This document shows positions 1,849 to 2,815 of a stretch of DNA of 64,000 nt, one piece after another. A program made the translations under genes and the position numbers. The stretch is from positions 1,914-65,913 of the forward strand of contig CAJTPV010000013.1 of assembly GCA_910578505.1 (NCBI GenBank), in the 5' to 3' direction. Under the pieces are notes generated by a model that was not told the DNA's origin, did not search any database, and saw only the letters and a program-made list of their open reading frames with translations. The stretch's first letter is position 1, and each line of letters starts with the position of its first letter. Source of the DNA: an uncultured Oscillospiraceae bacterium (GTDB lineage: Bacteria > Bacillota > Clostridia > Oscillospirales > Oscillospiraceae).

Positions 1849-2060
1849 CATCTCAATAAACCCAACAATCAAATCCACCGCCTCGGCGACGATCTCCACC
1901 GGGGCTTTCTCCACAAAGGCGGCATTTCTGGCGGCAACATCCAGCATCCGGGCCTGGTCACACAGGACCACGCCGTCAATTTTTCCGTCCCGCGCGGTCG
2001 GATATGGAACGGGCGCCGTTTATCCGTGTGGGTGATGGGAAAATAATAGAGAAAAAACTA

Positions 2061-2089
2061 TTGCAAAGCTGTGGGTGGTGTGGTATAGT
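2061..2089 (+). promoter_or_regulatory. Sigma-A type promoter (TTGCAA-17 bp-TGgTATAGT) for the antisense RNA, copy 1.
   Basis: -35 at 2061-2066, 17-nt spacer, extended -10 TGnTATAGT at 2084-2089. Confidence 0.7.
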
Positions 2090-2095
2090 AAGGGT

Positions 2096-2195
2096 GCGAA
2101 AGCACCAAACAGGTTACTTTATGAAACACCGCGAAAAGATCCCCCGGAGAGAGTGTGGTTTAGGGCTCTCTCACGGGGGATCTTTCCGCTATGGA
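2096..2195 (+). ncRNA. Candidate cis-antisense sRNA, a type I antitoxin-like RNA, copy 1. It overlaps the 3' UTR/terminator of the convergent peptide mRNA.
   Basis: The predicted TSS is ~7 nt after the -10. There is a 5' GNRA hairpin GGTGC-GAAA-GCACC, and the 16-bp bulged hairpin 2138-2182 acts as a bidirectional terminator. No ORF with an RBS is present. Confidence 0.5.
2138..2182. terminator. Bidirectional hairpin terminator shared by the convergent peptide mRNA and the antisense RNA (copy 1).
   Basis: GATCCCCCGGAGAGAG-loop-CTCTCTCACGGGGGATC. On the minus strand it is followed by TCTTTTC, and on the plus strand by TCTTTCC. Confidence 0.6.
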
Positions 2196-2200
2196 TTGGC

Positions 2201-2296
2201 TCACCGCCTCCGGATAAATCCGTCGAACCACTTGCAGATGCAGTTACTCACCACACCGGCCATGACGGACAGGAGGAAACCAAACAGGTTACCCAT
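2201..2296 (-). CDS. 31-aa hydrophobic peptide with a basic tail, MGNLFGFLLSVMAGVVSNCICKWFDGFIRRR. It is a candidate type I toxin, copy 1.
   Basis: ATG is preceded by GGAGGAAGGGGG (SD). The 5' UTR hairpin CCGTC...GACGG partly occludes the SD. The peptide has a single predicted TM helix plus a KW..RRR tail. It is missed by the ≥60-aa ORF track. Confidence 0.55.
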   Translation of the reverse strand: MGNLFGFLLSVMAGVVSNCICKWFDGFIRRR

Positions 2297-2342
2297 TAGA
2301 AACACCCCCTTCCTCCGTCAGGGATGAAAGACGGCAGGTATA

Positions 2343-2371
2343 GTATACCATAATTCGACAGAATGCGCAAT
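2343..2371 (-). promoter_or_regulatory. Sigma-A type promoter (TTGCGC-17-TGgTATACT) for the peptide mRNA, copy 1.
   Basis: -35 is the reverse complement of 2366-2371; -10 is the reverse complement of 2343-2348, with an upstream TG. Confidence 0.65.
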
Positions 2372-2423
2372 TCTTATTTCGGGTTCGATTCCATAGACAA
2401 ATAAAGACGAAGAAAAAATCTAT

Positions 2424-2452
2424 TGCAAAGTTGTGGGTGGTGTGGTATAGTA
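2424..2452 (+). promoter_or_regulatory. Sigma-A type promoter TTGCAA-17-TGgTATAGT for the antisense RNA, copy 2.
   Basis: Identical to copy 1. Confidence 0.7.
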
Positions 2453-2458
2453 AAGATG

Positions 2459-2556
2459 CGAAAGCACCAAACAGGTTACTTTATGAAACACCGCGAAAAG
2501 ATCCCCCATGAGAGAGGCTTGGGGACACTCTCTCTGGGGGATCTTTCCGCTATGGA
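2459..2556 (+). ncRNA. Candidate cis-antisense antitoxin-like sRNA, copy 2.
   Basis: Same architecture as copy 1. The terminator hairpin at 2500-2543 has a divergent loop and compensatory stem changes. Confidence 0.5.
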
Positions 2557-2561
2557 TTGGC

Positions 2562-2657
2562 TCACCGCCTCCGGATAAATCCGTCGAACCACTTGCAGAT
2601 GCAGTTACTTACCACACCGGCCATGACGGACAGGAGGAAACCAAACAGGTTACCCAT
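2562..2657 (-). CDS. 31-aa hydrophobic/Arg-tailed peptide, candidate type I toxin, copy 2. The peptide is identical to copy 1, with one synonymous change.
   Basis: Same RBS and 5' UTR hairpin as copy 1; its promoter is TTGCGC-17-TATACT at 2703-2731. Confidence 0.55.
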   Translation of the reverse strand: MGNLFGFLLSVMAGVVSNCICKWFDGFIRRR

Positions 2658-2702
2658 TAGAAACACCCCCTTCCTCCGTCAGGGATGAAAGACGGCAGGT
2701 AT

Positions 2703-2731
2703 AGTATACCATAATTCGACAGAATGCGCAA
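2703..2731 (-). promoter_or_regulatory. Sigma-A type promoter for the peptide mRNA, copy 2.
   Basis: Identical to the copy 1 promoter. Confidence 0.65.
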
Positions 2732-2815
2732 TTCTTATTTCGGATTTCTATAGGAAACAGCAAAATTCTTGACAAAGTGCTGGAAGGCTCTCCCGGCAAT
2801 TTGGAAAATCGCTAT

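Follow-up and report, generated by a model that had tools for sequence, protein, structure and literature searches.

Two tandem, predicted par/Fst-like type I toxin-antitoxin modules beside nadE in an uncultured Oscillospiraceae bacterium

What is encoded by two nearly identical units of about 360 base pairs (bp), each with a 31-codon open reading frame (ORF) on one strand and a promoter facing it on the other, that stand next to nadE in the chromosome of an uncultured Oscillospiraceae bacterium? The units lie at positions 2052-2746 of the 64,000-nucleotide stretch that we analysed (GenBank assembly GCA_910578505.1, contig CAJTPV010000013.1, positions 1,914 to 65,913 of the forward strand; hereafter the window). 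A preliminary description, made from the letters alone, had proposed for them a type I toxin-antitoxin architecture, that is a peptide messenger RNA (mRNA) with a convergent non-coding antisense RNA, and our comparative evidence strongly supports this. Each unit is in all likelihood a type I module of the par/Fst-like kind, an assignment made by comparison of sequences. The locus has so far gone without annotation and belongs, as a divergent member, to a family that is already known and very widespread.

The duplicated units and their predicted RNAs

Two pairs of direct repeats, 2175-2385/2536-2746 (211 nucleotides (nt), 99% identical) and 2052-2145/2414-2507 (94 nt, 96% identical), with a period of 361/362 bp, mark a tandem duplication. 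The units span 2052-2385 (copy 1) and 2414-2746 (copy 2), and are unlike only inside a hairpin (~2146-2174 versus 2508-2535). With these repeats, and with promoters on both strands in each unit, the arrangement proposed earlier, tandem and with convergent promoters, holds, and a recent duplication is supported too. The two ORFs differ by a single synonymous change. The features of the units, including the predicted small RNA (sRNA), the direct repeats that it carries (DRa, DRb) and the Shine-Dalgarno (SD) sequence, are the following.

2061-2089, plus strand: copy 1 sRNA promoter, TTGCAA-17-TGgTATAGT (promoter scan)
2096-2195, plus strand: copy 1 predicted antitoxin sRNA, ~100 nt, both ends estimated (fold)
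2104-2117, plus strand: copy 1 DRa, ACCAAACAGGTTAC, in the sRNA (same letters at 2279-2292)
2123-2130, plus strand: copy 1 DRb, GAAACACC, in the sRNA (same letters at 2299-2306)
2131-2189, both strands: copy 1 predicted shared bidirectional terminator hairpin, its interior the other way round from copy 2 and from other strains (inverted repeats I1-I3, folds, allele comparison)
2201-2296, minus strand: copy 1 toxin ORF, 31 amino acids (aa) and stop (translation; family profile, E 1.2e-12)
2303-2311, minus strand: copy 1 SD, AAGGGGGTG, 6 nt from the ATG (read from the sequence)
2315-2334, minus strand: copy 1 hairpin of the 5' untranslated region (UTR), CCGUC(N10)GACGG, beside the SD (read from the sequence)
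2342-2370, minus strand: copy 1 toxin promoter, TTGCGC-17-TGgTATACT (read from the sequence; score 8/12)
2423-2451, plus strand: copy 2 sRNA promoter (promoter scan)
2458-2556, plus strand: copy 2 predicted antitoxin sRNA
2466-2479, plus strand: copy 2 DRa (target at 2640-2653)
2485-2492, plus strand: copy 2 DRb (target at 2660-2667)
2493-2550, both strands: copy 2 predicted shared terminator hairpin, with allele A of the loop (inverted repeats, allele comparison)
2562-2657, minus strand: copy 2 toxin ORF, same peptide (translation, family profile)
2703-2731, minus strand: copy 2 toxin promoter (read from the sequence)

Both minus-strand ORFs (2296 to 2201 and 2657 to 2562) encode the same 31-aa peptide, MGNLFGFLLSVMAGVVSNCICKWFDGFIRRR, so that one such peptide per unit, as first described, is correct. 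Its hydrophobic core contains an SxxxG motif (S10-V-M-A-G14) and is followed by a conserved tryptophan (W23) and then by a charged tail (DGFIRRR); the prediction is a membrane peptide with a single helix. The SD had rightly been called strong: AAGGGGGTG lies 6 nt before the ATG, and its motif GAAAGGGGGTG recurs in the plasmid homologues introduced below. The toxin promoter, TTGCGC-17-TGgTATACT, is at 2370-2342 and 2731-2703, and the minus-strand mRNA predicted to start from it is ~210 nt long, with an acceptable U-tract (UUUUCGC) and a fold that stands out from shuffles (z -4.8). When the full mRNA is folded to minimum free energy, CCUCCU of codons 7-8 is base-paired to the SD, a small hairpin contains the start codon, and the stop-codon region is the partner of the 5' end. 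The 5' UTR hairpin that had been thought to occlude the SD exists (CCGTC...GACGG, 2334-2315), but the minimum-free-energy fold gives the SD its partner in codons 7-8 instead.

On the plus strand the sequence TTGCAA-17-TATAGT with an upstream TG gave the sole two matches of the region's promoter scan. In line with the earlier claim that no ORF follows it, this promoter would drive no conserved ORF: the only ATG frame in the sRNA is not conserved between the copies. The copy 1 sRNA folds at -46.8 kcal/mol, z -6.3 versus shuffles. Its terminator hairpin would also be that of the toxin mRNA, so the two RNAs would be perfectly complementary over this shared ~60-nt element and, by overlap, nowhere in the ORF. 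The hairpin has the stop codon on one side and the sRNA repeats on the other, so that the predicted transcript overlap is the terminator alone. To this extent the earlier description of the sRNA as antisense to the mRNA terminator region was right; it was incomplete in that it overlooked repeats of the start site at the other end of the sRNA. DRa, of 14 nt, is complementary to nt +5 to +18 of the toxin mRNA (codons 2-6); DRb, of 8 nt, is complementary to the spacer together with the 3' part of the SD. The first ~35 nt of the sRNA are thereby complementary to the toxin mRNA on either side of the start codon. The -10 of the sRNA promoter ends 14 nt before DRa. RNAduplex pairs the 5' 40 nt of the sRNA with the 5' 75 nt of the mRNA at -40.0 kcal/mol, as against -19.5 +/- 3.7 kcal/mol for shuffled controls (n=500), the best of which reached -35.5.

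A mechanism for such a unit can be proposed. The minus strand would give the ~210-nt mRNA for the 31-aa membrane peptide, and the plus strand a ~100-nt non-coding RNA. By analogy with par, the terminator loops, being complementary, would make first contact; from there pairing would extend to DRa and DRb and cover the ribosome-binding site, leaving the toxin mRNA untranslated. A further prediction is that the full-length mRNA conceals its SD and its 5' end by itself. Should the sRNA level fall, the peptide would be made, and membrane damage or growth arrest would be expected to follow.

Relatives of the peptide and of its messenger RNA

The peptide had at first been taken for one of no recognised family. 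A profile of 57 homologues, with the window peptide left out, was run against the 1,403 six-frame segments of the window and found only the two ORFs (E 1.2e-12, 43.6 bits), the next best segment having E ~1. This profile match, the Rfam family RF02442 and tested relatives in Streptococcus pneumoniae overturn the earlier view, and the novelty that it implied was overstated, as the peptide belongs to a large clade already partly assigned to Ldr/Fst.

The exact peptide is limited to a handful of contigs from metagenomes or metagenome-assembled genomes, in the same nadE/DegV context; it is conserved in seven further contigs, L134 among them (L numbers denote the related loci that we collected). 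A metagenome scan for the window-specific CICKWFDGF gave a single contig of the same species, leaving no nearby subfamily for a finer analysis of co-variation. Protein searches reached little further: with the peptide extended by upstream translation they returned the identical peptide only, and HMMER against 1.84 billion representatives returned, besides the peptide itself, a pair of miscalled 'fusion' proteins, each containing two copies of a related peptide.

Searches of DNA reached the rest of the clade. With tblastn against plasmids, matches were individually weak (E 0.05-10), and all lay in unannotated DNA of Firmicutes plasmids. Eight of these plasmid loci were inspected and hold clear homologues ending ...YYICKWLDG.., each with a promoter, SD, terminator, start-region repeat and convergent promoter. 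A degenerate 21-nt motif for [YC]ICKW[LF]D occurs at at least 120 loci in species-representative genomes, where ~110 of the 122 matches listed correspond to 25-40-aa ORFs that follow the pattern F-x-x-S-[VI]-x-A-[SG]-[VI]-[VI]-x-[YH]-Y-I-C-K-W-L-D. The same motif occurs at at least 120 loci in IMG/VR viral contigs, at least 97 of 128 being genuine among the matches listed there. Overall, ~75-90% of the listed motif matches are genuine small ORFs of the clade.

The clade consensus is ...SVxA[SG]VVxYYICKWLD..., most members reading YY-ICKWLD at the place of NC-ICKWFD in the window peptide. Hosts include Lachnospiraceae, Oscillospiraceae, Veillonella, Selenomonadaceae, Erysipelotrichaceae and Anaerococcus, besides plasmids and phage-like contigs. 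Existing resources hold little of this: none of the Pfam, NCBIfam and PADLOC models recognises the clade peptides, PHROGs gave only a weak match to phrog_738, a family of unknown function, a full-text literature search for the motif ICKWLD had no match, and protein databases contain almost no clade members, those present having no family name.

Four IMG/VR contigs (L141, L163, L176 and L179) carry two family members 269 nt apart; the pair of L141, the one examined, consists of quite different paralogues rather than recent duplicates. Tandem arrangement seems to be recurrent in the peptide family, as in S. pneumoniae.

The link to S. pneumoniae comes from Rfam. Over their full length the window mRNAs match RF02442 (SpF66_sRNA) with scores of 24.7 and 20.1 bits (E 0.0017 and 0.03). 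Among the plasmid homologues, that of S. pluranimalium (L010) scores 93.8 bits, that of E. mundtii (L013) 43.3 and the six others 27-39. The RF02442 consensus has an SD and a conserved 32-codon ORF, translated as MSLILELVLTIIADVIAGIILYFVCKWLDGKE; this peptide scores 18.9 bits against the Fst model NF033608 (cut-off 26) and 14.9 against PF13955 (cut-off 36). Read from this consensus, what Rfam calls 'Streptococcus sRNA SpF66' is not a non-coding sRNA but the mRNA of a type I toxin. F66 was reported as a 239-nt RNA between SP2168 and SP2169 in strain TIGR4, next to F67 (PMC3395615). The RF02442 model has the same length, 239 nt. We take SP2168 and SP2169 to be fcsR and adcA of the TIGR4 annotation. 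Between fcsR and adcA of strain R6 lie the tandem genes Fst-A and Fst-B, assigned to the Ldr/Fst family in 2010 (PMC2887945), and PneumoBrowse gives srn503/F67 as a type I toxin of the Fst family (PMC12323649). From the RF02442 consensus and the map position we infer that the pneumococcal peptides belong to the CKWLDG clade.

Fst-A/Fst-B (srn502/F66 and srn503/F67) would then be the closest relatives of the window modules with any experimental data. Like them they are chromosomal and tandem and have, by the RF02442 consensus, a C-terminal CKW(L/F)DG. Fst-B is toxic in Escherichia coli, and an antisense RNA of 65-75 nt was detected at the 3' end (PMC2887945), comparable to the convergent sRNA of the window. 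The pneumococcal peptide differs in being 32 aa long, with three to four more helix residues and an acidic tail, and its host is of the Bacilli rather than the Clostridia.

Conservation of the architecture and competing explanations

Sequence elements and their complementarity are conserved, and co-vary, across ~100 loci. For each of 105 homologous loci the toxin start region (-35 to +35) was compared with the 200 nt past the terminator. The median length of the longest exact direct repeat is 12 nt, and in 77 of the 105 loci it reaches at least 10 nt, a length found in 3/105 controls in reverse-complement orientation and in 10 of ~97 controls with the upstream region (some of these from tandem copies). 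The letters of the repeat differ locus by locus. A convergent sigma-70 promoter was scored in 54 of 58 non-redundant loci, many near consensus, but the opposite-strand control gave 40/58, so that presence of a promoter is by itself weak evidence and its position carries the weight. Where a promoter and a repeat of at least 10 nt are both found (44 loci), the distance from the end of the -10 to the repeat is 9-16 nt in 31 and 20-27 nt in 8 more, a spacing that would put the repeat right at the 5' end of an antisense transcript that is itself conserved. In our view this co-variation of whole interaction sites is the strongest sign that the ribosome-binding region is what the sRNA targets. The SD was a selection criterion in the larger locus sets; the eight plasmid homologues, which are free of that filter, have a strong SD at the right spacing.

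In L002 (~5195-5245) the flank past the sRNA start has been replaced, yet another and better antisense promoter, TTGACA-17-TATACT, stands at the same place. The position of the sRNA promoter is kept.

These features resemble those of par, in which convergent promoters flank a bidirectional terminator whose loops start the interaction, DRa and DRb sequester the initiation region, and the toxin mRNA has a 5' stem-loop and an upstream helix (PMC7472228). Like par of the Enterococcus faecalis plasmid pAD1, the window units have convergent promoters, paired direct repeats and, by prediction, a shared bidirectional terminator with complementary loops; as with par RNA I, the SD and 5' end are predicted to be hidden intramolecularly, and the toxin has ~30 aa and one transmembrane helix (PMC7472228). 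The signature given for Fst/Ldr toxins, a Trp between the transmembrane helix and a charged tail together with [P/D/S/T]xxxG(C) (PMC7472228), is present in the window peptide as SxxxG, W23 and the charged tail. Against hand-entered reference sequences of Fst, PepA1, LdrD and LdrA, hhalign aligns the family at 81.5% probability, SxxxG falling on PxxxG and Trp on Trp. To Fst of pAD1 the window peptide has no significant direct similarity in sequence; SxxxG takes the place of PxxxG, and the Trp that pAD1 Fst lacks is kept. The window locus is chromosomal and tandem, pAD1 par plasmid-borne. SprA1/SprA1as of Staphylococcus aureus is another system of this type: SprA1 encodes PepA1, an Fst homologue, and the antisense RNA, though it overlaps the 3' end, acts on the ribosome-binding site by a 5' domain outside the overlap (PMC8594479). 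PepA1 and the window peptide are unrelated at the thresholds of hidden Markov models, and the S. aureus locus is on a pathogenicity island. The type I toxins of C. difficile (NF047374) show a weak likeness along the N-terminal helix (window peptide 16.1 bits, its relatives 15.8-21.3, cut-off 60), but have ~50 aa and no CKWLD motif.

The preliminary description had drawn its analogy to txpA/RatA and bsrG/SR4 of Bacillus subtilis instead. These too are convergent, with overlap at the 3' ends and a small hydrophobic toxin, and if the window units worked likewise the antisense RNA would act only through its 3' overlap, with RNase III cleavage and decay of the toxin mRNA, and the 5' repeats would be irrelevant. 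In favour stands the perfect complementarity of the two RNAs over the ~60-nt terminator, and read-through of the weak sRNA terminator would cover the ORF too. The predicted geometry, however, is of the other kind. As T1TAdb describes it, the antisense RNA of the TxpA/RatA and BsrG group overlaps the toxin ORF, while that of Fst/RNAII and SprA1/SprA1as spares it and interacts outside the overlap (PMC8594479); in txpA/RatA and bsrG/SR4 the overlap that enters the ORF is the interaction site and leads to RNase III-dependent decay. In the window the predicted overlap does not reach as far as the stop codon (2201-2203), and the start site has a complementary region of its own, with repeats of 14 and 8 nt that fall exactly on the ribosome-binding region. 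Locus-specific repeats at a fixed distance from the antisense promoter recur in 77/105 homologues, and the Pfam/NCBIfam search of the window peptide gave no match of TxpA/BsrG type, the peptides being unrelated. The analogy was thus not borne out, the predicted overlap being confined to the terminator and the 5' segment targeting the ribosome-binding region by prediction, and we consider action through the 3' overlap alone very improbable.

The peptide might also be a non-toxic small membrane protein, or a decaying relic, tuned by a cis-antisense RNA and with no addiction or toxin function in the host. Chromosomal Fst/Ldr loci often have no deletion phenotype (PMC7472228), the tail GFIRRR is unlike the acidic or mixed tails of most relatives, and a truncated MazF-like remnant adjoins the modules, as at a site that accumulates dead toxin-antitoxin genes. 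Yet both copies keep promoters, SD, ORF and repeats intact, the one change in the ORF is synonymous, the same peptide is exact in the seven further contigs, and its relative Fst-B is toxic (PMC2887945); such a non-toxic or relic state is highly improbable in our estimation.

Still less credit, very little indeed, goes to the idea suggested by the Rfam label, that the minus-strand RNA is a non-coding regulatory sRNA with a fortuitous small ORF. Rfam does class RF02442 as 'Gene; sRNA', and gene callers rarely predict the ORF; but the peptide stays conserved across Clostridia, Bacilli and Negativicutes while third codon positions vary, F7, S10 and A13 are conserved outside the search pattern, and the unfiltered plasmid homologues have their strong, correctly spaced SD. 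A riboswitch or leader, considered in the preliminary description, was rejected, no such Rfam family matching the region at E<1.

Several points weigh against the par/Fst-like assignment itself. The curated Fst models PF13955 and NF033608 match neither the window peptide nor the eight plasmid homologues at E<=10, and the family profile has no match in the PDB at E<=10, whether to a chain of Fst, PepA1 or Ldr or to any other. Both window RNAs score under the RF02442 gathering score of 42, and the sRNA matches none of the Rfam antitoxin families. The invariance of ICKW.D in loci from L014 onward is imposed by the search pattern, although outside that pattern F7 and S10 are kept in at least 90% of sequences and A13 is invariant, and the plasmid loci derived by tblastn show ICKW.D conservation with no pattern filter. 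The toxin promoter, described earlier as near-consensus, is so in its extended -10 only: its -35 matches consensus at 3/6, which is why, with a score of 8/12, the promoter scan did not list it. The sRNA terminator has a weak U-tract (UUUCC), so the sRNA may read through. Across the family, pairing of SD and anti-SD has a median of -10.7 kcal/mol as against -9.8 in composition-matched shuffles (p 0.04); SD sequestration by codons 4-16 as a family-wide trait is largely accounted for by base composition.

Hairpin alleles and the site beside nadE

The interior of the terminator hairpin has three alleles with quite different apical loops, between flanks judged by eye to be nearly identical (at most a few mismatches per 100 nt). 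Allele A is found in window copy 2, L001, L002 and L004, allele B in L003 and L005, and allele C in window copy 1 and L134. Allele C is an exact flip of the hairpin interior; A and B are set apart at one stem position by a compensatory A-T/G-C change. Many relatives in the family have clear A-run/T-run terminators. Copy number varies among the related contigs, L001 having one copy, and L003 and the window at least two. In the window copies the start-site repeats are identical and the loops are not cross-complementary. A different pattern is seen in the tandem pair of L105 (916 nt apart, minus strand), whose promoters and terminators are almost identical while the toxin start region and the 5' repeat of the sRNA have diverged co-ordinately, which suggests insulation of the paralogues via the start-site repeats. 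Seven near-identical locus pairs, six of them genuine modules, show scattered substitutions and indels but none in the apical loop; hypervariability of the loop is therefore no general trait of the family.

In the host lineage the apical loop, presumed by analogy with par to make the first 'kissing' contact, may be a fast-evolving determinant of specificity, and swapping or inversion of loops could give duplicates some insulation against each other. A second and separate idea is that the near-invariant CKW(L/F)D motif might point to a specific molecular partner of the clade, as opposed to generic membrane damage. Taken jointly, we hold these two ideas to be improbable.

The neighbour to the right was correctly named nadE: it has CN_hydrolase and NAD_synthase domains, and its NadE sequence is identical to MCI8439967.1. 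The surface-protein label given to the left-hand neighbour could not be confirmed, that ORF having no Pfam family at threshold. Guanine-plus-cytosine (GC) content is ~47-55% on the left side (1-2800: the large ORF, the MazF-like remnant and the modules) versus 60-69% in most of nadE/degV (2850-5900), a step that suggests that the modules lie at the edge of acquired DNA.

The remnant is a minus-strand ORF fragment at 1843-2010, ending in DGVVLCDQARMLDVAARNAAFVEKAPVEIVAEAVDLIVGFIEMK and a stop, that resembles the C-terminal third of PemK/MazF (PF02452; 17 bits, gathering score 23.1, E 0.007) and is probably, judging by this match, a truncated type II toxin abutting copy 1. A hairpin at 1811-1838 follows it and also terminates the large left-hand gene. 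The junction between the copies (2381-2393, cgggttcgattcc) resembles a tRNA T-arm, a resemblance extended in L004 at ~5265-5300; as a tRNA fragment or att site it was rejected, ARAGORN finding no tRNA in the whole 64-kb window or in the related loci. Nor does any Rfam family match the whole window (1-64000) at gathering thresholds.

The site has the look of a border, beside nadE, of an acquired island rich in toxin-antitoxin genes, and the role of the modules might be to stabilise this lower-GC island, or lie in the response to stress or phage. For the window, the finding mainly serves to mark that island edge. More useful are its by-products, that SpF66 is, as its consensus reads, a toxin mRNA and that its peptide clade is abundant yet essentially unannotated. 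Clade members abound in chromosomes, plasmids and viral contigs of gut Firmicutes, almost always without annotation, and their sole catalogued trace is an Rfam family that appears mislabelled as a streptococcal sRNA. A proper peptide and RNA model would let gut-microbiome annotation recover a large class of type I modules, relevant to the maintenance of plasmids, prophages and islands and perhaps to stress tolerance.

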